From Cyanidioschyzon merolae (Eukaryota), in the NCBI GenBank assembly GCA_000091205.1, contig AP006499.2: 64,000 bases of DNA; one strand, written 5' to 3'. Position numbers and translations under genes: made by a program. Shown one piece after another: positions 1,216 to 30,990 of this stretch. The notes beneath the pieces were generated by a model, which did not search any database, was not told the origin of the DNA, and was given only the letters and a program-made list of their open reading frames with translations. Numbering within the stretch: the first letter of the stretch is position 1; each line of letters starts with the position of its first letter.

Positions 1216-2529
1216 GTGCGCTGTCCCTGTGGGTGCTCGTCAGCAGCTCAGAGCCGGGCGCCTTTGCGAGCATCCAATCGCCGTCTGGTCGGAGTGCACG
1301 AAGAATCAGACATGCTCAAGTTCTTTCGCCAAGACGGGTCGAATGAGGACAAAGATGATACGAAAAAGCGTGCATCAGTCCTCGAACGCGACGTATCGTC
1401 GCCGCCGGAGCGCCAGGAGCACGGCACGGACGACTTGTCCGAGAGCGCGCAACGCTCTCGTGTTTTATTCGGGTTGATTGTGGGCTCCATGGTAGCGCTC
1501 TGGGGACGGCGTCACCGTCCGAATCCTAACATGGAAAAACGACCAGCATCGAACGGTTCTGGTAGAGAGAGACAGTCTCGATGTTCAGCCTTGGTGAGCG
1601 CTGCCCCTGTAATTCGCATGGGACTAGTCGCTGACGTGCAGTACGCTGACAAGGACGATAAAGAGGTCAGCGGCTCGACGCGCCACTACAGGAACGCCAT
1701 TCATAAGCTGGCACGAATCGTGGAGGCTTTCGATAGCGAGGCGGGGTCGCTGGACCTTGTGCTCCAGCTCGGAGACCTAGTCGATGGCCAGGAGCAGCTC
1801 GATGGATCGCGCGCCGATCTTGAGCTCGTCCTGGGTCAGTTCGCTCGTCTTCCCGTGCCGCTGTACCATGTCTTGGGTAATCATTGCCTCAAATGCGGTC
1901 GCGACTGGCTTCTGAAACGTCTTCGCACACGTGCGTTCTACGATATGCCGCTGCGCGCACGGATGTCATCGGGCCCGAGCGCAACAACCACTCCGTCGGA
2001 AACGCCGTGGCGGCTCGTTGTACTCGATTGTCTGGATATTTCATTGCACTGGGATGATCCAGAAGACCCACGACGTTTGCAAGCAAAGCGCTATTTAAAG
2101 GAACACGCCAGCACGGCTCCGAATGCGGTGCCATATAATGGCGGTATCGGAGAAACGCAGCTGGTTTGGCTCGAGAACGTTCTCGCCGAGGCTCGGACGC
2201 GACAGGAGTTCGTCATCGTCGCCGGGCACGTGCCGATCGCTCCGCAGAGCGCGGCACCGTCTCTGTTACTTTGGAACTACGAGGAGGTTATGGCCCTATT
2301 CCGGGTCTACCGCGACGTCGTGAAGCTCGTACTAGCCGGCCATGAACACGACGGAGGCTATGCCCAGGTTGATGGCATTCACTACATCACACTGCATGGA
2401 GTGGTGAATTGCACCGACGGTGACGATAACGCCTATGCTATTCTTGAACTTGTAGGGCACTCGTTTGCTCGCTTACATGGATTTGGACGCGTCGAGTCTC
2501 GTCTGCTGCTTTTCGACGCATCCCCATGA
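1216..2529 (+). CDS. Calcineurin-like metallophosphoesterase, ADPRM-like (Mn-dependent ADP-ribose/CDP-alcohol diphosphatase). True start uncertain; candidate ATGs at 1216, 1312, 1489 and 1531.
   Basis: Single long ORF. The conserved blocks GLVADVQYAD, LQLGDLVDG, GNHC, AGHVPI and AGHEHDGGY align to the ADPRM metallophosphoesterase signature, and the C-terminal layout matches human ADPRM. Confidence 0.8.
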   Translation: MRCPCGCSSAAQSRAPLRASNRRLVGVHEESDMLKFFRQDGSNEDKDDTKKRASVLERDVSSPPERQEHGTDDLSESAQRSRVLFGLIVGSMVALWGRRHRPNPNMEKRPASNGSGRERQSRCSALVSAAPVIRMGLVADVQYADKDDKEVSGSTRHYRNAIHKLARIVEAFDSEAGSLDLVLQLGDLVDGQEQLDGSRADLELVLGQFARLPVPLYHVLGNHCLKCGRDWLLKRLRTRAFYDMPLRARMSSGPSATTTPSETPWRLVVLDCLDISLHWDDPEDPRRLQAKRYLKEHASTAPNAVPYNGGIGETQLVWLENVLAEARTRQEFVIVAGHVPIAPQSAAPSLLLWNYEEVMALFRVYRDVVKLVLAGHEHDGGYAQVDGIHYITLHGVVNCTDGDDNAYAILELVGHSFARLHGFGRVESRLLLFDASP

Positions 2530-3989
2530 AATGGCGATCAGCTCGCACTGAAACTTGGTGTGCCATACCATTGCTGGCAATACTTGGATCCTGCGTCTGC
2601 GTTCATCACAGAGCGATCCAGCTCGCCGCTGATGCGCGCTGCGGAGCGAATCGCAGGCGGCTAGAATGGCTGGGCATTACGGAGCGCCTCGGAAGCGGTG
2701 CTGTTCACGTAAAGCCCGCACAGCAGACAGCTACAACGCGTGTTGTACCCGAAGGAACTCGCTGAACGAAGACAGCAGAGCCTCGGTAGTTGTTCTTACC
2801 AAGGATTCGGATAGGATCTGTGGTGCTGTCGCCGTCAACGTCGCTGGGGCACTGAGCATGCACCGCGCGTGGGTATCAACGCCAATTTGGATGATCGTGC
2901 TGAGGTTGCAACCTGGACAAGCTAGCGGAGCACTGTAGAATACCAGCATTCTTGTTTGCTAGAAAGCTGCACGAGAGCAAAATTGAAACGAAACATGGCC
3001 CCTAGTGGGGATACGGGCCTCGAGCTTGCGCCCGAAACACCAACGCCACGAGATCAGGCGACGTTCTGGCAAGCAACGCTATTGAATCGATTAGAGTTTG
3101 CCGTAGTTTGGAACTGGATCTGCCGCGGGTGCTCATCATTTGGGTATTCAGCGGGAGAATTTGCCGTAGTTGTGTTCGCAGTAGGAAGCGTCAGAGCTCA
3201 CTTCTGTACGCGTCGAGTCCAAGAACCGATGCGTGCGGAACGATCGTGCAGCCGTGTCCGCTGCAGAACATAGAGGCGTTCTTCGTTCCGTAAACGATCG
3301 GCAGAAAGCTTTTCAGTATCGAGTCGCTTCTGTACAGTAGCCGTGGTGCGTAGAAGCCGATGCACGCTGCTCCCCGCAGCGAGCACAGCGCTTGCGAAGC
3401 GGGATCACTTGTCGGCATTATGCAACGGTCCGTGTGCGGGCGTGCCGTGCACCCAGGGTTCAGTTTAGCGCGCTGCTCGAATCTCCATTCGTGTCTGCAT
3501 CGAATGGAACAGCTCCGCTTTGCCAACTCGGGCGTACACACTTCAGTTTGGGTCTCCTGGTATTGTCATCAATACAAGCCTTTGAGGGCGTTTTGTTCAA
3601 CTGCCTTCTTTCCGTCCTTCTAATCCGCGGCGTGGAATATGTTGGTCTCTTCTTTCTGTTCTTCTCAGTTGGCAAGAGTCGAACGATGTTGGTGGCAGTG
3701 TTCAGGTCCCGATTTCACTGCTTCCAGCTGGAGTCGACGCATGTCGTCCCTAGATGATGCATTCGATCTACGCTTCGCTTGCCATGTTTATTTTCTTTGC
3801 ATACAGCATCGGTACGCAGTTCGCAGCGGTTGCGCTTGGCTCTATGCAGGCGTTCCCATATGATCGCAACCGCCACTCCTTCTCGTTCTTGTGCTGCGCC
3901 TCGTCGAAGCGCTGCCCTATGGTGCGTGAGCGCTTGCCTGTTCGTTCGTTGTAGACGCCTGACGGGTACAGAAGGCTCGCATAGATACA

Positions 3990-4500
3990 TGCCGTCTTGC
4001 GGCGCCTGGTGCCGTATCCTACGATCACGTGCTTGTTCTCAGTGATCCCCTTGGCGAGTACTCTTCCGGCTGCACGTACAAGCGTACACTGTTCCGTTCA
4101 ATAAAAAATTTGTGGAACGTGATATTGTCCATGATGAAACTAGCACCCCTAGGATAATCGTGAATGGAGAAACTTCCGAGCCATGTCGATCCGCCTTCGC
4201 ACCTTTCCTGCAATTCCGGAACGCGCTCTCGCCACCCGAAGCGCTCGTAACGATGACTGAGGTTCGATCTCAAGGCCCTTGCACCGGCGCTATAGGCGCC
4301 AATGCTGTCGCTTTCGGCAGGCTCGGCACACGATAGCACGTATGACACGACCAGAATATCCGAGATGAAGTGTAGGTAATGTACTATGGAGGTAGGGCGT
4401 TTGATAGATACTTCATCGCGCACTGAAAAAACAACACAAAAAAGTAAGAAAAGAAAAATGCACATAATCGGAGAACGCTGGCCTAAGTACACGTTTTGTC
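3990..4500 (+). repeat. Degenerate probable copy (U) of the dispersed repeat family; only the core is reasonably recognisable.
   Basis: Block B (reverse complement GTGGAACGTGATATTGTCCATGATGAAAC at 4113-4140) matches Y 55368-55388 and X 47931-47953. A weak block-C-like stretch lies at about 4345-4375. The region is AT-richer than its surroundings. Confidence 0.35.
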
Positions 4501-5138: not shown

Positions 5139-5510
5139 CGGACAAACGACATCCGCGTTGTTCAGGCAACAAGCGCCAGCGCGTTAACTCAAATAACAGA
5201 AGACGCGTTTCTTCGAGTCCGCTGTTAGGTTTTCAAGTCAGCGCGTAGACCAAACGACATCCGCGTTGCTCAGGCAACTAGCGCCAGCGCGCCGACTCGA
5301 GTTACAGAAGACGCCTCTCTTCAAGTCAGCGCGTAGACCAAACGACATCCGCGTTGTTCAGGCAACTAGCGCCAGCGCGCCGACTCGAGTTACAGAAGAC
5401 GCCTCTCTTCAAGTCAGCGCGTAGACCAAACGACATCCGCGTTGTTCAGGCAACTAGCGCCAGCGCGCCGACTCGAGTTACAGAAGACGCCTCTCTTCAA
5501 GTCCGCTGCT
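5139..5510. repeat. Minisatellite, about 88-bp unit x about 4.2 copies, ending 4 bp before the ALG8-like ATG.
   Basis: Direct tandem repetition of GACCAAACGACATCCGCGTTGTTCAGGCAACTAGCGCCAGCGCGCCGACTCGAGTTACAGAAGACGCCTCTCTTCAAGTCAGCGCGTA. Units are near-identical; the first unit carries a about 20-bp insertion. Confidence 0.9.
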
Positions 5511-5514
5511 CCGA

Positions 5515-7275
5515 ATGGATAAAACGTCGCACCCACAGGAAGGAGTGGGTTTTGGGTTGCTGCTGCGATTGTACTGCGTGACGGCGCTTCTGAAGGCTCT
5601 TTTGGTGCGCGCACCTTACTCGACGGACTTGCTTGTGCACCTGCACTGGAAGAGTCTCACGAGGCGGTTCCCAGTGTCCGCCTGGTACACGCCTGCGACC
5701 GGGCCACCCTATCTGGACTATCCCACATGTTTCGCCTACCTCGAATGGTTCCTCGGTGCGCTGGCGCAGTTGCTCCGTATTCCACTCGATCACGAGAACG
5801 GTAGTGTGCGTTTATCGACGTTGATCTTCATGCGAATAACAGTTATCGCACTAGACGTGTTTCTGTTTCTCGGCATGCGACCATGGTGTGCAGGCCCGGA
5901 GACAGCCGCCGCAGCCTCTTTCCCGTCTGTAGTACTCGATCGATTGCTTTGGGTTGTTACGCACCCTGCGCTCTGGCTCGTAGACAATATCCATTTCCAA
6001 TACAATGGGCTGGTAATTGGCGTCATTCTATACAGCCTGGGCGTCCTGTTTCGCGAGAGCGTTTACGCGGAAATGGAAAAGCGTCGATCCCAAAGAGGCA
6101 TGTGGCGAGCTAGTGCGGCTTTTCTGGTGGCGTTGGGCTTGAAACATACGACTGCGCTCAGCATTGCGCCAGTAGTCGGACTTGTGCTGTGGAAACAACG
6201 CGCCTGGAAGAATATCTATGTTGTTGTTTCCGGTTTCGTTTGGTTGCTTCTGATGCTCGGCTTGCCTTTTGGGTGCGTGGGTTGGCGCGCGCTCTGGGAA
6301 CGCCTCTTCCCGCTGGATGAGCGGGGCCTTTTTCACGCGTATTGGGCGCCGAACGCGTATGCCCTGCTCGCAGCCGCTGACAAAGTTGTCGCCCGTTTCT
6401 GCGCTCTCGTTTTCAGCAGACTTGTGGAACGAGGGCTTGCGAAATCTCCGCACGGCTCTGATCTGCTACCGATGCTACACCGATCCGGCCGCGTTTCGAA
6501 CAGCGCCGGACTCGTCCAGACTGCAGGGGGCGGTTTCTACCTCTTGCCAGAATGGACTCCGATGCTTGCCACGCTATGCTGCGTCGTCGCAATGACACCG
6601 AGTCTGCTTGCTCTGCACTGGGCATTCCAGGAAAGTGCAAGGCATGGCGAAACACAACCTGCCAGCTCGGATGCAACCGCCGTAGACCGGTTAGATCAGC
6701 GCCGTTGCATGGAGTTTTTGGCGAAGATATGCGCACAGGTGTCCCTGAGCTTGTTCTTGTTCGGATGGCATGTCCACGAAAAGGCGCTCATCCTGCCGGT
6801 GTTCCTCGCGGGCCTCGGATTAGGGCCGCGTCATCCGGTAGCTGCGGCCCTGAGCACAGCCTGCTCGCTGGCGATGTTCCCGCTGGTGTCCTCGCCAGGC
6901 GTACGGCTGGTTCGGCTCGCGCTGCTCTTCTGGCACTGGCTATACTTTGCGCCGCTGCAGCCTTGGCCACCGACGCGCGCGTGGCTGTTGGTGTATTCGT
7001 ACGGTGGAATTGGGCTGATGATCGGCGAGCTGTTGGCCTCGTGGCACGGCTGGCAGCGTCTGGGTCTACCGTTTCTGCCGCTGATGCTACAGTCCGTGTA
7101 CAGTGCGCTCGCTGTTGTCTTCGCATGGGGTTATCTCAGCTGGCAGGTGTGGCGAAGCACGCGAGCCGATTACATGGGATGCAGCCCAAATGCCGAAGCC
7201 AAGCACTTGCTCATCGCACCGTCAGTGCAGGCCGGTGCGCGACCTCTGCTTGTCCGTAGCTCCTCCAAGCACTGA
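5515..7275 (+). CDS. ALG8: Dolichyl-P-Glc:Glc1Man9GlcNAc2-PP-dolichol alpha-1,3-glucosyltransferase, ALG6/ALG8 family (GT57), ALG8-like.
   Basis: The N-terminus LLKALLVRAPYSTDLLVHLHWKSLTRRFPVSAWYTPATGPPYLDYPTCFAYLEWFLG parallels human ALG8 ([53 protein letters not shown]). The ORF is a multi-pass membrane protein of 586 aa and carries the HEKALILP motif. Confidence 0.85.
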   Translation: MDKTSHPQEGVGFGLLLRLYCVTALLKALLVRAPYSTDLLVHLHWKSLTRRFPVSAWYTPATGPPYLDYPTCFAYLEWFLGALAQLLRIPLDHENGSVRLSTLIFMRITVIALDVFLFLGMRPWCAGPETAAAASFPSVVLDRLLWVVTHPALWLVDNIHFQYNGLVIGVILYSLGVLFRESVYAEMEKRRSQRGMWRASAAFLVALGLKHTTALSIAPVVGLVLWKQRAWKNIYVVVSGFVWLLLMLGLPFGCVGWRALWERLFPLDERGLFHAYWAPNAYALLAAADKVVARFCALVFSRLVERGLAKSPHGSDLLPMLHRSGRVSNSAGLVQTAGGGFYLLPEWTPMLATLCCVVAMTPSLLALHWAFQESARHGETQPASSDATAVDRLDQRRCMEFLAKICAQVSLSLFLFGWHVHEKALILPVFLAGLGLGPRHPVAAALSTACSLAMFPLVSSPGVRLVRLALLFWHWLYFAPLQPWPPTRAWLLVYSYGGIGLMIGELLASWHGWQRLGLPFLPLMLQSVYSALAVVFAWGYLSWQVWRSTRADYMGCSPNAEAKHLLIAPSVQAGARPLLVRSSSKH

Positions 7276-7631
7276 AATGTAAAATATCTACTGTTAAGCA
7301 TGATATCGCTCGATCTCCCATGGAGCAGAGCACTTTGACAACACCAGGCACTATTAGGACAAGGCGAATGCGTGGTACTCTCGACGACTTTCGTCTGCGG
7401 TACCTGCGTGCGGTACAGCACCTTATCGCGTTGCACGACGATGCCGTGCCACCCTCACCTGAGTGCCAGTCTGCGTAGCTTCAAAAGCAAGCAACACGGT
7501 TTCCAGAAGTGCCAAAATACGCCCATATCATTCTCTGGAACGGAGTCTCCAGGCGACGGACTTTTTTATTGAGATATGGCACAAAGTCTGCACGCTGGAC
7601 GAGGAGTCTGTGTGATGACACCCTGAAAACA

Positions 7632-9307
7632 AACGCCGTTCTAAAGAAAAAGGCTGCTGTCGCCAGTGGTGCAGTAGTGGCGAGAAACCCGCCCTAGACA
7701 AAACGTCTCCAACTGAGGAGCAGACGCCTCCCAGTCTTGATCGACCGGCCATCTCCTACTGCTTCCAACTTCTTCTCATATAGGTCGACTTTGAGAGGTT
7801 GTCCAATAAAGTTTGTTCTTGTCGACTCTGGAGGTCTCTTCTCCAGCACCGCACATTTCCGTCCATTGAATGCGGCGTTAAAGTCTCAATTGACAAACTC
7901 CATACGTTTCTTGCCATTGGTTGTACTTACGAATGCGAGTAGTCCACGAACTTTTGCCCTCCTTTCCATTTGCTCTTCCGTCAGCGCTCCGTACTTTTTT
8001 ATACCCTCAGGGCTCCTCTGGCACTTTTTCCATCTCGACACTCTGAGGTGTACACTCCAGTTCGTGATGTGTATACGATGTTCGGAACTCATCTACAGGT
8101 ATCGTAACAAAACGCCTTGCGCACTCCTTGTACGTTCACGTCGTTGGAGCTGGTGTACACCCTTTTTTGGATTCCCAGCGTCCTGCTCCGTATGCGACTA
8201 CGAGCCTTTGAATTTCATCCTCCTTCAACGCACTCAACTCATTGAAAAAATTCGCGAACGCCCGCTGTTTCCCGCCGTATCGATTCATTCGCAAACGAGC
8301 CCACCGGGGCTTGGTATACTCCTCCCACAGCGTATCCCAATGCGCAATGCGAATATCATAACCATCGCTGTATCCAAGCGTGCGGAAGATGGTATTGATG
8401 GTAACGTACGTCAGAAAGCAATGCGTCTTTAGAGGTTATCGACAGCGAGATTCTACCGGGAATCAGGTATAACGAATGCGAGGAAGAAAACTGCTGCGTG
8501 GAATGCAGGAATGAAAGAGCACCTGGAAGCTTCGAGCGAGGCGACGAGCCGAGGCGCGGACTTTGAAGCTTTTCGAAAGTGTATGGAAGTTCGCATTGCG
8601 CATTGGGATACGCTGTGGGAGGAGTATGCCAAGCCCCGGTGGGCTCGTTTGCGAATGAATCGATACGGCGGGAAACAGCGGGCGTTCGCGAATTTTTTCA
8701 ATGAGTTGAGTGCCCTGAAGGAGGATGAAATTCAAAGGCTCGTAATCGCATACGGAGCAGGACGCTGGGAATCCAAAAAAGGGTGTACACCAGCTCCAAC
8801 GACGTGAACGTACAAGGAGTGCGCAAGGCGTTTTGTTACGATACCTGTAGATGAGTTCCGAACATCGTATACACATCACGAACTGGAGTGTACACCTCAG
8901 AGTGTCGAGATGGAAAAAGTGCCAGAGGAGCCCTGAGGGTATAAAAAAGTACGGAGCGCTGACGGAAGAGCAAATGGAAAGGAGGGCAAAAGTTCGTGGA
9001 CTACTCGCATTCGTAAGTACAACCAATGGCAAGAAACGTATGGAGTTTGTCAATTGAGACTTTAACGCCGCATTCAATGGACGGAAATGTGCGGTGCTGG
9101 ACAAGAGACCTCCAGAGTCGACAAGAACGAACTTTATTGGACAACCTCTCAAAGTCGACCTATATGAGAAGAAGTTGGAAGCAGTAGGAGATGGCCGGTC
9201 GATCAAGACTGGGAGGCGTCTGCTCCTCAGTTGGAGACGTTTTGTCTAGGGCGGGTTTCTCGCCACTACTGCACCACTGGCGACAGCAGCCTTTTTCTTT
9301 AGAACGG
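7632..9307. repeat. Large near-perfect inverted duplication (palindrome). The left arm is about 7632-8330, the unique spacer about 8330-8615 and the right arm about 8615-9307. Arms are about 99% identical.
   Basis: ORFs 7737-8432(+) and 8463-9206(-) translate to the same protein except for 2 substitutions and the C-termini. The 68-aa ORFs 7886-8092(-) and 8851-9057(+) are identical. Direct reading shows reverse-complement identity from AAACGCCGTTCTAAAGAAAAAGGCTGCTGTCGCC inward on both sides. Confidence 0.9.
8511..9170 (+). pseudogene. Possible decayed TnpB/Fanzor-like (OrfB zinc-ribbon) reading frame. It runs outward through the right arm, is interrupted by in-frame stops at 8805, 8934 and 9063, and is mirrored on the minus strand of the left arm.
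   Basis: Frame 0 reads ...LVIAYGAGRWESKKGCTPAPTT*TYKECARRFVTIPVDEFRTSYTHHELEC...EMCGAGQETSRVDKNELYW. This resembles the TnpB C-terminal pattern YKA..G..V.V.P..TSQ.C..CG ... C..CG..DRD.NAA.NI, with YKECARRFVTIPVDEFRTS matching YKAAWYGRTLIKVDPRNTSQ. The similarity is judged by eye only. Confidence 0.2.
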
Positions 9308-9373
9308 CGTTTTCTGTTCGTAGCGGATGCCAGAGAACTGACGTTCATTTGATTCGCAGAGTAGAGGACGCTT

Positions 9374-10699
9374 ATGCGTTCGGGATTTCTGCACGAAGCA
9401 GAGCCGCCGGCTCTGGATCCTGCAGATGCGGTGTGGCGACGTCTCAGTTCAGTTGAGCAGCAACGATACTTTCTTCATCGCATCGTGCTGCACACTTTTG
9501 CGCAGAAACCCTTAAGGATACCGACGGAAATACTCGAACACAACTCAGGACAAAGTGGCGTTCATGAGTGGCAAGGACCGGTCGCCAGTTTCCTGCGACT
9601 GCTCCGTCGACTCTGTCACGGCCTCCGGTGGGAACACCGCGGTGCCGAGCGCTCAGTCGTCGTTCTCCACCCTGGTGTGTACGTTGGCTGTGTTGCCGAC
9701 GAACACACTGTCGACGACGTGCCTCTCATCGTGCACCGTTGCGACGACCTGGGCGCTTACTCGGTGACGGTGCTGCTGGAGCCCTTGCTGGTGCTGGCCC
9801 CGTTCGGGAAGCAGGTGACACGAGTGCGCTTTCGCAAGGCCGTCACCGAGAACAGCAGCCCAGAGACCATCGATGCGTTTATGCACGTCACACTCCCGCT
9901 GGCACAGGCGCTTCTCGGAACGGATTCGTGGTCAGAGCTGGCACCTTGCCGGGCGCTTCGGGTCCAGCTACTTCGACGGGATGTGCCTCAAAGCGGCTCC
10001 GATACGCAGAGGATGCACGCACCACGCGGCGTTGTTCTGTTCGAGTGTCCAGTATTGAAGACGGGGCTGCACTGGGAGACGCTTCGTGAGACGCTGGCGA
10101 GGGGCTCGTTCCCACATGGACGCAGCGTTATTCAGCGGCTGGGCGGGGTGGTGTCCACGGCAGGTGTTGCGCCAACGTGGGGTCTGCGCCTCATCAGCAT
10201 GTCGCGTTCGCATTTCGAGCGCTGGTTGAGCGACGTGTACATAAGCGCCGTTCGAGTGCCGAAATCACGGACACCCATGTGCAGTCTGACAGTATGGGCG
10301 GAGAGCGCTGACAACTGCGCCTACGTTGCGAACACGAGCTGGTTTGAGGACTTGGATACTTTCTCGAATGAGCGCCGGGACCTACTCGGTTTTGCCGCCT
10401 TAGAAAAGATATTTTACAGCAAACTGCTTCCTCGTCTACGGCGGCGTATTCGGAATGCTGGACGCGCGGATACGCAGCATCACCCCCTGTTGCTGTGGTT
10501 CATGGCAATGGCACCTCCGAAGGGGCCACTTCAGACGTGCCTCGGGGCAGAGGTAGCGCTGCCAAGCCACCTACTTATACAGGATTTGGAGCATGTGCTT
10601 GGTGTGCGGTTTCATCTGCAACAAGACCAGAAAACTACGCTCTGGTGGTTATGCTGCCAAGGTTTGGGTTACCAGAACTGGAGCCGCGTTCGCCATTAG
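9374..10699 (+). CDS. Hypothetical protein (441 aa) with no recognisable domain.
   Basis: Long ORF with balanced composition and no motif I can name. Its 3' end overlaps the convergent ORF 10649-11794. Confidence 0.35.
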   Translation: MRSGFLHEAEPPALDPADAVWRRLSSVEQQRYFLHRIVLHTFAQKPLRIPTEILEHNSGQSGVHEWQGPVASFLRLLRRLCHGLRWEHRGAERSVVVLHPGVYVGCVADEHTVDDVPLIVHRCDDLGAYSVTVLLEPLLVLAPFGKQVTRVRFRKAVTENSSPETIDAFMHVTLPLAQALLGTDSWSELAPCRALRVQLLRRDVPQSGSDTQRMHAPRGVVLFECPVLKTGLHWETLRETLARGSFPHGRSVIQRLGGVVSTAGVAPTWGLRLISMSRSHFERWLSDVYISAVRVPKSRTPMCSLTVWAESADNCAYVANTSWFEDLDTFSNERRDLLGFAALEKIFYSKLLPRLRRRIRNAGRADTQHHPLLLWFMAMAPPKGPLQTCLGAEVALPSHLLIQDLEHVLGVRFHLQQDQKTTLWWLCCQGLGYQNWSRVRH

Positions 10700-11794: not shown

Positions 11795-14700
11795 ATTCGT
11801 TTGTGGAAGCGAAGCGCGGCTTCAGCATGCGCACATTCGCGTGTGCAAAACTCCAGGTATTCGCAGCGCTCAGCTGCTGTTGCCCTTTGGCGGTTTCGAG
11901 CTCCACCTTCGTTCACTGTGCAACTGCTAAAGCCCACGTGTCCTCTTACACCAACGTTCAGTCGCGGTGCCGCCTGCACGAGTGCGTCTCGGAACGCTTC
12001 CGCTGGTGCGCAGGCGCTGTGCCTATGCGCCTGCGCTCATGCGATCCGTTGGACGAGCGCCGGCCAATGGCGCGGCCGCTTTCGCGCAATGTGGACCTAT
12101 CGTTTCTACGCAGTCCATGCGACAGATTCCGTAGATTTTATGGATGCTCGGGACGCTATATTTGGTACGGATGATATCGACCGTGTTTCGTCATTCCGGG
12201 ACGGTCGTCTGCGTTCAGTAAGCTTGCGTGATATCACGAATGACGTTAGCCAAGGTTCACAAGTACGTGTTTGTCTACGTCTCTGCGTACCTGCACGCAT
12301 CCAGAAACATGGAGCCCCGACCTTCGGATGCAGTGCAGAGCGATCGCTGTGGGCGGGACGCGATGGCGCTTGGCGCACGCTCCACAGCTGCCGGCTGAGT
12401 GCGCCATCGATACACTTGTCGCTACCCGAACAGGAGAATATCGAAGAGAAGAGCCATGTGCGTCTGGAGGAACGAGCGCAGTCAATTACGCTCTGTGCAG
12501 TGCATTCTGGAGTACGCGTGAACTCCAGAATGGTCTTTTGTTCTTGCTCGCAGGTATTCAAGAAAAGAAGTGAATCCCCTGGATCGCAGAAAGTTCGCGG
12601 AACGAATGTGTCCCGTCACTCCTAGATTGCAAAGAAAGGCCTTGCATGGACAAGTCAAATGTGCTATGGTCTGCAGGCGGATGCTTCCCTCTTTTCATGG
12701 TTCTTTTGCTGGACGTCGTCCATCGAAAATAGAAGTTACCAAACTCAAGCTCAACGACTGCCTCCGCCTGGATCCATTTCACGCCAAAGGACCTCCGAGA
12801 AAAAGCTGCAGGATGTGAAGCTTTCGCATCATGGATAAGAACGACGGTGACGATGCGCGAATGAACAAAGCGACAGGTACCCATGTACACGAGACCATCG
12901 CGCGATGAACAGCAAACGCTGTCGGCTTGGGAGGGAAACGCGGTCGTCCATCGCGGGACGGACGAATGTTCGGCTCATCCGGTGAGACTTGATTCGCGAG
13001 AAATTGCGGAGCTGTTCATGGGCACTCAGATAGGCGTGGAACGCAGTTCGCAACCGAAAGACAAGACGGAACGACGGCGGGAGCAGTCCGTGGGCCCTCT
13101 CAAGTGTCTGGATACGAAAAACTCGTCAAAAATACAGGATCGTTCAACACCTCATCCCTCGTAGAAGCGCTCCCCGGGGCCTTCTCTGTCACGCATTCCT
13201 CTGTCCTGCTCTGAGCCGACGTCGCATCCCATCACTCGCCAGCCGGAAAGGAATATGCTGCTGATACTGGGGTTGAGGTACTCTTCGTACCAGTCTATGC
13301 TGCCTTGTGCAAGCTCATCGAACGCGTCGTCTGTCGTGTTGGACGCCATCTCAAGGCTAGCGGATCTGAATACGAGTGGTTTCCACCCATGACATCGAAG
13401 GCAATCGAGAAAATCATTCTTCGACAATTCATTGTCTACCTTCAACAGCCCTGAATTGCATTGTTGTTGCTCGTCTGCTCGTGCGCGTGAGGGTAGCGCG
13501 AAGAAGCGCTGCGTTTCACGAGGCGCACCCCGTGTCCCTGGACTGCGTCGAATCCTCAGCGTGCTGGCGCAGCAGCATGGAAACTGACGGAGACGATCTC
13601 TCGAGATACTGATGGAGGCAAGTCACGAGCTGATGATGTCATATTCGTTCGCGGCGGTAGCCAGTGCCCCGGAAACGTCGCAGTGAGCTCGAGCGTCACC
13701 TCTGATCACCAGAGCTCAACGTGGCGTACTGGACCCCGAATCGCCGAACGTCATATCCAAGGAATGGTAGACACATCGTGCCTGGCTGGAAGCCTTGCCT
13801 CCTGCGGAAATGCGTGTTCCATGAACGAGCATCGTAGAGCAAAGCTGTAGCAGAGCCCGGATCCGAGCGCATTCGCCTTCTCAAGCTCCTCCCTGATGTC
13901 TTCCTGATTCGTCAGATCGAGGTCTATTGTATCACCAAAGAGTCTTCAGTGGTATATGGCCGCTCTCAGTGAGCTACGACTGGTCTCTGCAAGCAACGAT
14001 GAAGCATTATGACAACTTTACGAAAAGCACTGGTGGAGCTCGCTCAATCTTTTCCTTCAACACAATGGAAATAGAATGAACTGAACAGGGACGATCAACA
14101 CTTTCGGACGATCGACCTGCATGCACTTTGTGAAACCCTGGTCTCAGTCGAACAATGAGACTCATTTTCAACCGTTTTTAGGTAGATGAATAGAGATAGT
14201 TTCAGATACGCGGGAGTCCGGGTTCCGGGGCACCGCGGCCGTCGCCATACCAGCAGATCGATCGAGGCGGTGGAGCCCACGACCTCACAAGAAAACTAGA
14301 TGGGGCTGCGCATCTTCTTCCAATGCTAGGTTGCATCGCTGGCCGGGTATCGTGGCCACCAGGACGCATATGGTCAAGCGGAATGACAGCAACGGGATCG
14401 ATGTCGACACCCTGAGCATCCTGTCGAATCGAGACGGCTGTTTCATGCGCTTCATTCAGAGACAATATATGACCGTGCCATCGGCGCATGCGGACGATCT
14501 TTGGCAGGAGGATCTGACAGACTGCGCTGCGATCGCGAACAGTATCGGTGGTGCGGAGGCAACAGGCGTGGCTTTACCAGCCTGTTCAGTGCACCACATA
14601 AGGAGCTGATGGATGCGTCCCGTTATTTGGTCATAGCCTACCGCGCTGAATATGCTGTAGCGCGCATCATCTGCACTCCTGCTCCTTCGACGTGCGCGGA

Positions 14701-15039
14701 CAAGGAAAACAGGAATCGATTCTGTAAGATTCTCATCGATGCGTTCAGGACGACATCCACACATGAAGAGAATGGGAGCACGTTGCATGATCTAGAAAAG
14801 ATAACAGTGAAACACAGCCGAATGCTCGATACGGTGCTGGGTAAGCTGAGCGAGCGTCGGAAGGCGAGGTGCTCGAATAGCGAGGCTTTCTATGAGGTCA
14901 TTTCACCTGTGCAACAATGGACGTTACCGCTTTCCACACTGAGCATTCTACACCGCGATCAACTTGCCGGAATGCACCGTGCCTCGGCAACATCCAGCAG
15001 CTTTGCGTTGAGCGAAATTCCGTCAGAATCCCATACTAC

Positions 15040-15197
15040 AAAGTCTGCGCATTGTACTGAAACTCTGAAGACCTTTGGTGAATAGAGAACCACTGACCAG
15101 GAGCGAAGACTCCCAGAATCCTCTACGGCAAAGTCTGGGCAATGTACTGAAACGCTGAAGATGTTCGATGAAAAAGGAACCGGTGACCAGGAGCGAT
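15040..15197. repeat. Tandem duplication, about 90-bp unit x 2, about 85% identical.
   Basis: CAAAGTCTGCGCATTGTACTGAAACTCTGAAGACCTTTGGTGAATAGAGAACCACTGACCAGGAGCGA is followed by CAAAGTCTGGGCAATGTACTGAAACGCTGAAGATGTTCGATGAAAAAGGAACCGGTGACCAGGAGCGA. Confidence 0.8.
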
Positions 15198-30150: not shown

Positions 30151-30892
30151 GTGAAGGCTTTGATGACGTAGAGGCGAACGGGCGACGCCTCGAGCACCAC
30201 GAGGGAGCGCTTCATGACCGGCGCTCTATCGAAGCGCATCGGTTCGAGGGAACAAAGAACAGAGACTGAACGCTAACTACCAACAAGATGACGAACTCTT
30301 CTCCCGTTACGATAAAGATTAAAACGGGAAAAAGTTTCCGTATCTTCGAAAGTTTACCTTCGAGGTGGAAGTTCCAGCGAGCCGGACGAGTCTCCCGGGC
30401 TAGTGCTTCATGCTACCACCAGTGGCAGGTGCTGTGGCGAAATCTGAGCAACTGGTCCGCAACGCCATTCATTCTGCGACAAGGGTGCCGGTAGCCTGTG
30501 CCTAGGCGTTGCGGACCAGTCCTACTGGACTCCCAGTATATCGCTTCGCGCTATCGTAGGCAGTACGTCTGTCCGCGCAGCTTGCAGACTCCCAGCATGA
30601 TCATGAATCCCAATTCCTGCCGAGTAAAGCACTCCTCGAGCCGACGCACTCAGTGGTATGGCAGCAGGGTTCTGTCCCCGTGATGTATCTGCTCCAGCGG
30701 TTTAGGCGCTACAGCCGCAGCTCAGTGCAGGCACTCGGCGCTCGATAGCACGTACAAAACGACCGGTTTATCCGAGCGGAGCTATATGTAGTGGAACTTG
30801 ATGATAAGCGCATCATGATAGAAGCTTTTTCGATAACCATGATCCATCGTGTAGTCTGGGACCTGTGGTCAACGTAAACGTTTTGTCATCGA

Positions 30893-30990
30893 AAAGAAGC
30901 AGCAGTAGCAGTAGTAGCAGCAGCAGCAGTAGCAGTAGTAGCAGCAGTAGCAGCAGTAGCAGCAGTAGCAGCAGTAGCAGCAGTAGCAGT

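Follow-up and report, generated by a model that had tools for sequence, protein, structure and literature searches.

A near-perfect palindrome next to ALG8 in Cyanidioschyzon merolae appears to be a head-to-head pair of truncated Fanzor1 elements

The window analyzed here, a 64,000-nucleotide (nt) stretch of the genome of Cyanidioschyzon merolae 10D, contains a 1.68-kb near-perfect palindrome, the two arms of which are related to CMe-1A, an element that encodes a protein of the Fanzor1 family. The palindrome lies between two adjacent genes and occupies most of the intergenic region. The gene to the left, ALG8, is a 586-amino acid (aa) open reading frame (ORF) at positions 5515-7275 that was identified as an ALG6/ALG8 glucosyltransferase (Pfam E = 1.5e-67), and its product is 100% identical to XP_005538215.1 of C. 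merolae 10D. An exact look-up of the ALG8 protein as read from the window gave no record. The gene to the right is a 441-aa ORF at 9374-10699, designated RTC-like, with a product that is exactly XP_005538216.1 of the same strain, encoded on a 1.23-Mb chromosome. The natural 3' terminus of the right arm is located 61 nt upstream of this gene. An origin in a trypanosomatid or an oomycete, to which the low number of introns and the GC content of 56% had seemed to point, was set aside after homologues of ALG8 had indicated Cyanidiophyceae and the matches to strain 10D had proved exact.

A repeat search and a base-by-base comparison placed the two arms at 7631-8353 and 8590-9312, each 723 nt long, with 236 nt (8354-8589) between them. 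The arms differed at six nucleotides, corresponding to 99.2% complementarity, with the mismatches found at 7814/9129, 7841/9102, 8198/8745, 8228-9/8714-5 and 8315/8628. The identity broke off sharply at both outer and both inner edges. Since no further repeat longer than 26 nt was found within the surrounding 5 kb, the palindrome cannot be attributed to chance. A target-site duplication was sought at the outer edges, and no flanking direct repeat was found. Likewise, a search of the literature found no earlier description of the palindrome. The inverted repeat had been noticed previously in a reading of the DNA without database searches, here called the original prediction, which estimated that the inverted arms were about 99% identical, in agreement with the measured value. 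However, the approximate sizes that it gave, 700 nt for the arms and 285 nt for the spacer, have been replaced by the values above.

For C. merolae, Bao & Jurka 2013 (Mob DNA 4:12; PMC3627910) described one Fanzor1 family, CMe-1A, and reported about 150 copies, each matching the ~3-kb consensus with approximately 80% identity. According to the same report, the element has no terminal inverted repeats (TIRs), its target-site duplication was undetermined, its class was given as 'unknown' and its first 635 bp constitute a separate element, TE-N2_CMe (PMC3627910). The 3169-bp consensus and the 734-aa protein, CMe-1p, provided in the supplements of that paper were used as the reference. Nucleotide alignment (blastn) matched window positions 8350-9309 to consensus nt 2209-3169 with 86.7% identity, and positions 8353-7634, in the reverse direction, to consensus nt 2449-3169 with 86.8% identity. 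Both alignments ended at consensus nt 3169, the 3' terminus of the family, and left the last three bases at either outer edge of the palindrome, TTT, unaligned. When CMe-1p was aligned with the translated DNA (tblastn), the match required two frames, spanned residues 434-734 in the right copy and residues ~515-734 in the left arm, and had an identity of 74-83%, with 78-83% in the arms.

Judged from these alignments, each arm is the last 721 nt of the Fanzor1 element CMe-1A, plus TTT. The left arm (7631..8353, minus strand) is a 5'-truncated pseudogene copy that comprises consensus nt 2449-3169 and the final TTT, and encodes the counterpart of residues ~515-734. The right arm (8590..9312, plus strand) is the corresponding 3' segment of a second 5'-truncated copy, identified by both blastn and tblastn. 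The intervening DNA (8354..8589, plus strand) is equivalent to consensus nt ~2213-2448 and residues ~436-514, and its translation, IITIAVSKRAEDGIDGNVRQKAMRL*RLSTARFYRESGITNARKK..., matched CMe-1p from residue 434 on. On this alignment, the spacer is no foreign DNA but a part of the right-hand copy that extends further toward its 5' end and has no counterpart in the left arm. The stitched translation of the right copy had 228 homologues in hot-spring metagenomes, with identities of 55-80%. The proposal that the 3' half of a decayed TnpB/Fanzor gene had been duplicated head to head, reading outward in both arms, was borne out by the match to CMe-1A nt 2449-3169 and to CMe-1p residues ~515-734.

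The coding sequence is interrupted at several positions. The Fanzor1 homology continued in one frame to about residue 629 (window ~8933) and was then found in another, ...PEGIKKYGALTEEQMERRAKVRGLLAFVSTTNGKKRMEFVN*DFNAAFNGRKCAVL.... The frameshift was localized to the interval 8878-8935 on the plus strand (mirror ~8008-8065), where the tblastn match switched from frame +3 to +1, or from -3 to -1 in the left arm, with an overlap of query residues 606-629. The ends of the ORFs and the alignment with CMe-1p defined two in-frame TGA codons. One, at 8805-8807 on the plus strand (TT*TYKE; mirror 8136-8138 in the left arm), replaces an Arg codon, and the other, at 9055-9057 on the plus strand (VN*DFNAA; mirror 7886-7888 in the left arm), replaces the Arg of the RuvC-III motif. 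The two stop codons and the frameshift are common to both arms, while a TAG stop in the spacer (8430-8432, plus strand) is confined to the right copy. The RuvC-II motif, VDEFRTS, is present in the window copies. RuvC-I is absent from both, its GADPG sequence falling just upstream of residue 434, where the right copy starts. Because the stops and the frameshift are shared and the RuvC-I aspartate is missing from both, the copies, as read from their sequence, are dead pseudogenes of the Fanzor1 family, and no nuclease could be made from either of them.

These results modified the reading frame that had been proposed. The original prediction described the same frame maintained across three in-frame stops; the single frame is incorrect in the last third owing to the frameshift, and the tail that it quoted, EMCGAGQETSRVDKNELYW, is out of frame and is not the real RuvC-III motif given above. 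Its opinion on the facing ORFs of 231 and 247 aa, which it took for probable artefacts of antisense-like composition, was judged to be reasonable, in that they are antisense to the Fanzor frame, have no Pfam match and, in the case of the 231-aa product, are unrecorded. These ORFs should not be annotated, and the locus would be better described as a dead inverted CMe-1A pair that contains no gene.

Fanzor1 nucleases have by now been characterized both structurally and biochemically. The classification of CMe-1p as a Fanzor1 protein dates from Bao & Jurka 2013 (PMC3627910). Pfam and NCBIfam scans of the stitched pseudo-protein, the full-length homologues and the 734-aa reconstruction gave nothing significant. 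The zinc-ribbon profile PF07282 yielded E values of only 0.15-0.9 with CMe-1-type proteins, and reached 5e-4 in three of 30 relatives; the CxxC cysteines of the zinc ribbon are mostly replaced in CMe-1 (THHELGC...EKC). A shallow profile, A1, consisting of close relatives only, found no match in the PDB, and the AlphaFold2 model obtained from this alignment had a mean pLDDT (predicted local distance difference test) of 35.5 and was unusable.

A deeper profile gave a different result. An exhaustive HMMER search of 1.84 billion representatives identified 1373 relatives, many of them 600-700 aa long, and profile A2 combined CMe-1-type proteins with remote relatives from this search, 30 sequences in all. 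When compared with the PDB, A2 matched PpFz1 from Parasitella parasitica (9cf0, E = 1.7e-20), SpuFz1 from Spizellomyces punctatus (8gkh, E = 1.3e-12) and GtFz1 from Guillardia theta (9cer, E = 1.2e-5), and the alignments brought the DPG, vDEFRTs and nRD.NAA.N motifs into register. Among the catalytic residues in the 30 relatives, D122 and E294 were invariant and D363 nearly invariant. The split RuvC triad, D...E...D, is thus kept by the CMe-1 family overall but not by the window copies. The 2013 classification and the independent profile test, taken as sequence comparisons, support the membership of the family in Fanzor1. The absence of a significant Pfam match, which the original prediction would have counted as a refutation, proved to be a misleading guide that would wrongly reject a Fanzor, considering the marginal PF07282 values on the one hand and the A2 matches to solved Fanzor1 structures on the other. 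Pfam alone misses the CMe-1 Fanzor1 lineage, and the comparison of a family profile with solved Fanzor1 structures is needed to detect it.

The same locus was found in metagenome sequences, which are designated here by L numbers, and the contigs that cover the two flanks matched the window with 98-99.9% identity. More than ten contigs (L007-L016, L103-L110), all of which end inside the repeat, reproduced the transition from the ALG8 flank into the left arm together with the inverted orientation, and the junction between the right arm and the right flank was reproduced in L097-L102 with 99.3-99.9% identity. In L007, read from the left, the inverted left copy runs on through the equivalent of window 8589-8346 and is followed by a further 260 nt of CMe-1A, including the DPGN motif and 75-nt acidic tandem repeats, back to consensus nt ~2089, at which point a forward copy begins from nt ~2131. 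L097 and L098 have the mirror layout when read from the right side. The environmental palindrome has arms of ~1.05 kb, with both copies reaching consensus nt ~2089-2131. An empty site, or a contig that spans the distance from ALG8 to the RTC-like gene, was sought among the metagenome contigs and none was found, all of them breaking inside the arms. One short contig, L010, connects window ~7682, a position slightly within the left arm, back to 7307-7409 (L010 2432-2534) and is probably a chimeric or circularized assembly product.

A segment of 504 nt in L007 (12840-13343) is missing from the window. The sequence AATGCGAA is found on either side of this segment (L007 12832-12839 and 13344-13351), and this 8-nt microhomology is present in the window as a single copy at the deletion junction (8346..8353). 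Because an insertion that restored homologous gene sequence would be implausible, the reference form appears to be a deletion derivative of the palindrome with ~1.05-kb arms. A 504-bp deletion between the two 8-nt direct repeats would have taken out the center of the palindrome asymmetrically, shortening the arms from ~1.05 kb to 723 nt and widening the spacer to 236 nt. Asymmetric central deletion is known to stabilize palindromes, and the microhomology-flanked loss of the center that distinguishes the reference from its environmental relatives would be a natural example of this process.

The age of the structure was estimated from the divergence of its parts. Divergence from the family consensus amounts to 13% in the window arms, which form a long branch in a star-like tree. 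The inner 244 nt in L007 differed from the right copy at 14 of 244 positions (5.7%), compared to 6 of 723 (0.8%) in the outer arms (Fisher p = 2.7e-5), and the innermost repeat units in L007 were more diverged than the inner 244 nt. One window arm differs from the other at six positions, and from either arm in other strains at 5-9 positions. The divergence from the consensus and the difference of ~6% between the inner segments of the longer allele suggest that the palindrome is old, and that the similarity of the outer arms reflects homogenization by arm-to-arm gene conversion, with no very recent duplication. The original prediction had attributed the identity of the arms to recent formation or gene conversion; the contrast between the inner and outer segments argues for the latter and against the former.

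The reading that best accommodates these observations, to which a probability of about 0.8 was assigned, is that the 1.68-kb structure is a non-functional fossil consisting of two CMe-1A 3' parts arranged head to head, with the 5' ends in the center and the natural 3' termini facing outward. The inverted pair would most likely have been formed by fold-back (snap-back) DNA synthesis or repair. The fold-back may have been nucleated in a 45-nt segment (consensus 2089-2134) that includes a native 8-bp hairpin, GCTTCGCC-CGT-GGCGAAGC, and the start of the 75-nt tandem repeats.

The location of the center was compared at other sites by fetching about 80 family loci and examining them for inverted pairs. 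At an unrelated locus, L079, two 5'-truncated copies are positioned head to head, with arms that are 73-80% complementary. The best symmetry axis, at position 3470, is the loop of CTTCGCC-CCT-GGCGAAG, a native inverted repeat at consensus 2110-2126 that, as RNA, forms an 8-bp hairpin of -13.9 kcal/mol. The junction at the window locus joins consensus 2089 to 2131 and is within the same 45-nt segment as the L079 center. Since two unrelated loci share a center within 45 nt of a 3-kb element, a sequence-directed event is favored over random deletions, and fold-back at the hairpin/tandem-repeat region is, with moderate confidence, the preferred origin. The other inverted pairs were L054/L055, which is short and old, and L092, in which two near-full-length copies are head to head.

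Large palindromes are known to form at short inverted repeats and to be stabilized by central deletion, as formulated in the fold-back priming and center-break models for yeast and mammalian cells. The window locus resembles these large genomic palindromes in that the axis coincides with a short native inverted repeat or lies beside one, the center is the most divergent part, the arms evolve in concert and one allele has lost its center by a microhomology-flanked deletion that left a spacer. In contrast to them, the arms end at natural transposon termini with unique DNA on both sides, there is no duplication on the scale of a chromosome arm and the mechanism is deduced from the sequence only.

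Several observations weigh against the fold-back origin and the history outlined above. The fold-back step is derived from two loci only, the junction in the window is ~8 nt off the hairpin loop and no clear priming microhomology is left. The two arms of L079 have diverged from the consensus to unequal extents (89% vs 78%), and this is at least as compatible with two insertions that differ in age as with a single duplication. Gene conversion, if it occurred, erases the evidence that would separate these two possibilities. The 504-bp deletion allele was seen in the reference sequence only, an exact look-up of the 231-aa ORF that spans its junction found no record in any other assembly, and the deletion may have occurred during the cloning of the Sanger-era reference genome. 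Moreover, the central 260 nt are oppositely oriented in L007 (13084-13343) and L097 (124-384), with 1 mismatch in 260 after reverse-complementing, either as a result of a real flip-flop inversion between the arms or of an ambiguity in short-read assembly through a collapsed repeat.

The foremost alternative, considered possible but unlikely, is that two independent CMe-1A insertions came to lie head to head, that central deletions removed both 5' halves and that gene conversion then brought the inverted copies close to identity and carried the stops to both. Such an arrangement could arise from the way in which these elements insert, since CMe-1A and TE-N2_CMe are found directly after T-runs and the A-rich leader of the element, read from the other strand, offers such a run; TE-N2 modules in inverted orientation are located exactly there in L085, L047, L074, L045 and L092. 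In addition, the near-full-length head-to-head copies in L092 have an arm identity of 82%, the arms of L079 are unequally diverged, as noted, and both outer ends of the palindrome are genuine 3' termini plus TTT, like those of every other copy. Other observations oppose this alternative. Random deletions are unlikely to have ended in the same 45-nt segment at two unrelated loci (a coincidence of ~2%), no remnant of either 5' half is present at the window locus, and the frameshift and stops that the arms share demand extensive conversion.

The recurrence of the same architecture and center at two unrelated loci would also be expected if the palindromic unit were a mobile, non-autonomous, foldback-type derivative of CMe-1A with ~1-kb TIRs, the window and L079 being two copies, and the outer ends are natural termini against T-rich flanks, as at ordinary insertions. 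However, this explanation is highly improbable. A neighbor-joining tree grouped the window arms with their own orthologues only, left the left arm of L079 on a long isolated branch and contained no palindrome-specific subfamily, and the identity of the window arms to the L079 arms, 85% and 72%, did not exceed that to ordinary copies. The ~80 loci examined included only two of this kind, the palindrome has no flanking target-site duplication, and the parent family has no TIRs and no known transposase (PMC3627910). The foldback transposon with very long TIRs, offered as an alternative in the original prediction, consequently finds no support, as there is neither a shared subfamily nor a target-site duplication.

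It is scarcely credible that the palindrome was created artificially when the reference genome was cloned or assembled. In favor of such an origin, some long-read libraries readily generate false palindromes, E. coli clones tend to lose palindrome centers, and the spacer/deletion junction at 8353/8354 was found in no other assembly. Against it, independent metagenome assemblies of short reads, representing several samples and two pipelines, reproduced the flank-arm junctions on both sides, the inverted orientation and an inverted second copy past the center were observed in L007, L097, L098 and L099, every contig with ALG8 or the RTC-like gene stopped within the arms, as a true repeat predicts, and six differences between the arms would not be expected of a fold-back read artefact. 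The concern that the palindrome might be an assembly artefact is thus answered by the independent contigs for the palindrome as a whole, but not for the exact spacer.

Neither the element family nor its Fanzor1 protein is new, both having been published in 2013 (PMC3627910). The window locus conforms to CMe-1A in host, in the 87% identity of the arms to nt 2449-3169, in the 734-aa Fanzor1 protein and in the lack of TIRs and of a target-site duplication, and the TE-N2_CMe copy in the window corresponds to the first 635-640 nt of CMe-1A, as published. It differs in being composed of two 5'-truncated, pseudogenized copies joined head to head. Inverted pairs, a preference for T-runs and a terminal hairpin were not described for the family in the CMe-1A paper (PMC3627910). 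The head-to-head truncated pair, the polymorphism of the central deletion and the family-level clues that resemble Chlamydomonas Helitron2-type Fanzor1 elements are new but small additions. The palindrome suggests no new biological system and is largely an ordinary transposon fossil.

The profile of the CMe-1 family could be aligned with the solved Fanzor1 proteins (9cf0, 8gkh, 9cer) from the WED/REC region to RuvC, including the three catalytic motifs, and the resemblance extends to a basic N-terminal stretch similar to a nuclear localization signal and a 3' non-coding tail that ends at the terminus of the element. Unlike the solved proteins, the window copies lack RuvC-I and are broken by stops and a frameshift, the CxxC cysteines of CMe-1 are largely replaced and the guide RNA of the CMe-1 family is putative. 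CMe-1A is also similar to the non-autonomous Helitron2-type Fanzor1 elements of Chlamydomonas, CRe-1, -2 and -3 (PMC3627910), in its insertion right after TTTT, the lack of a regular target-site duplication and of TIRs, the 3' hairpin, the variable or truncated 5' regions and a Fanzor1 gene as the only ORF. In contrast, the asymmetric terminal inverted repeat and the 5' hairpin of the CRe elements were not convincingly seen by eye in the CMe-1A consensus, and no RepHel gene was found, although no search aimed at one was made.

The alignment of 28 family copies defined the 3' untranslated tail, the terminal hairpin region and the TTT at 9250..9312 on the plus strand (mirror 7631-7693). A terminal hairpin of 10-12 bp was kept among these copies in two sequence versions, and the mean z score of the 3' tail was -1.6. 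The hairpin in the 3' tail of the window is degraded and folded no better than shuffled sequences (z = -0.26). RNAalifold gave no consensus structure for the 28 aligned 3' ends, and an Rfam scan of window 7000-10000 found no match. The 3' tail of active Fanzor elements is where the scaffold of the guide RNA would end. From its sequence, the terminal hairpin of the family would be consistent with a signal for transposition or with the terminus of a guide RNA.

At the 5' ends of CMe-1A and TE-N2_CMe, TTTT occurred within the last 10 nt of the flank in 14 of 19 distinct junctions, compared to 1 of 57 control windows (p ~3e-21). The junctions with T-runs were in L004, L020, L028, L033, L047, L054, L056, L061, L062, L069, L078, L085 and L087, and at window 30892-30900. 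The 5' ends of CMe-1A are modular or vary among copies, which resembles the outcome of one-ended or 5'-truncating transposition. The T-run preference, the conserved terminal hairpin and the recurrent head-to-head pairs with a shared center are clues to the movement of CMe-1A, a family that has been unclassified since 2013. A more speculative proposal, which is quite unlikely to be correct, is that head-to-head 5'-truncated dimers are a regular by-product of CMe-1A-type movement, in which the 3' end would be copied via single-stranded or rolling-circle, Helitron2-like intermediates, inserted after T-runs and subject to snap-back at the internal hairpin. If this were true, the palindromes would be a footprint that reveals the transposition mechanism of a Fanzor1 family that has neither TIRs nor a transposase.

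The sequence gives no indication of a function for the palindrome locus. Cruciform extrusion is expected to be disfavored with a spacer of 236 nt. A hairpin might conceivably form in single-stranded DNA or in a read-through RNA from the palindrome.

Other features of the element ends were noted. A 12-nt sequence, GTTTYCAGGRGT, was present beyond the 3' end of the consensus in approximately one third of the copies (L006, L018, L020, L027, L050, L059, L087, L089 and, at 7619-7630, the left arm in the window). It was not found at the right arm, and the flanks diverge beyond it. The 12 nt may represent a second, longer form of the 3' terminus or a target that the element prefers. A similar short direct motif was seen, by eye only, at the two ends of CMe-1A, as GACAAAACGTTT at the 5' end (nt 5-17) and as GAAAGGCGTTT or GAAAAACGTTT at the 3' end (~3155-3169 plus TTT). 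The core of the family starts near consensus nt ~648 and is preceded by at least four different upstream modules, one of which is TE-N2 in either orientation; the loci concerned were L030/L019/L021 (~4813), L045/L058/L074/L085/L092, L024/L046 and L005/L018/L056.

Related sequences were also found elsewhere in the window. A full-length copy of TE-N2_CMe at 30250-30891 (minus strand) matches consensus nt 1-640 with 80% identity and follows CTTCTTTT, and a 104-nt fragment of the TE-N2_CMe module at 4293-4396 (minus strand) corresponds to consensus 84-189. A far older, heavily decayed relic of the Fanzor1 family at 14558-15059 (plus strand) has 29-33% protein identity to CMe-1p residues 542-706, and a remnant of RuvC-II, LIDAFRTTSTHEE, is still discernible. 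Lastly, tandem 88-nt repeats are located upstream of the start of ALG8 (5143-5510), and the metagenome contigs do not have the same number of these repeats as the window, as indicated by staggered blastn matches in the interval 5143-5506.

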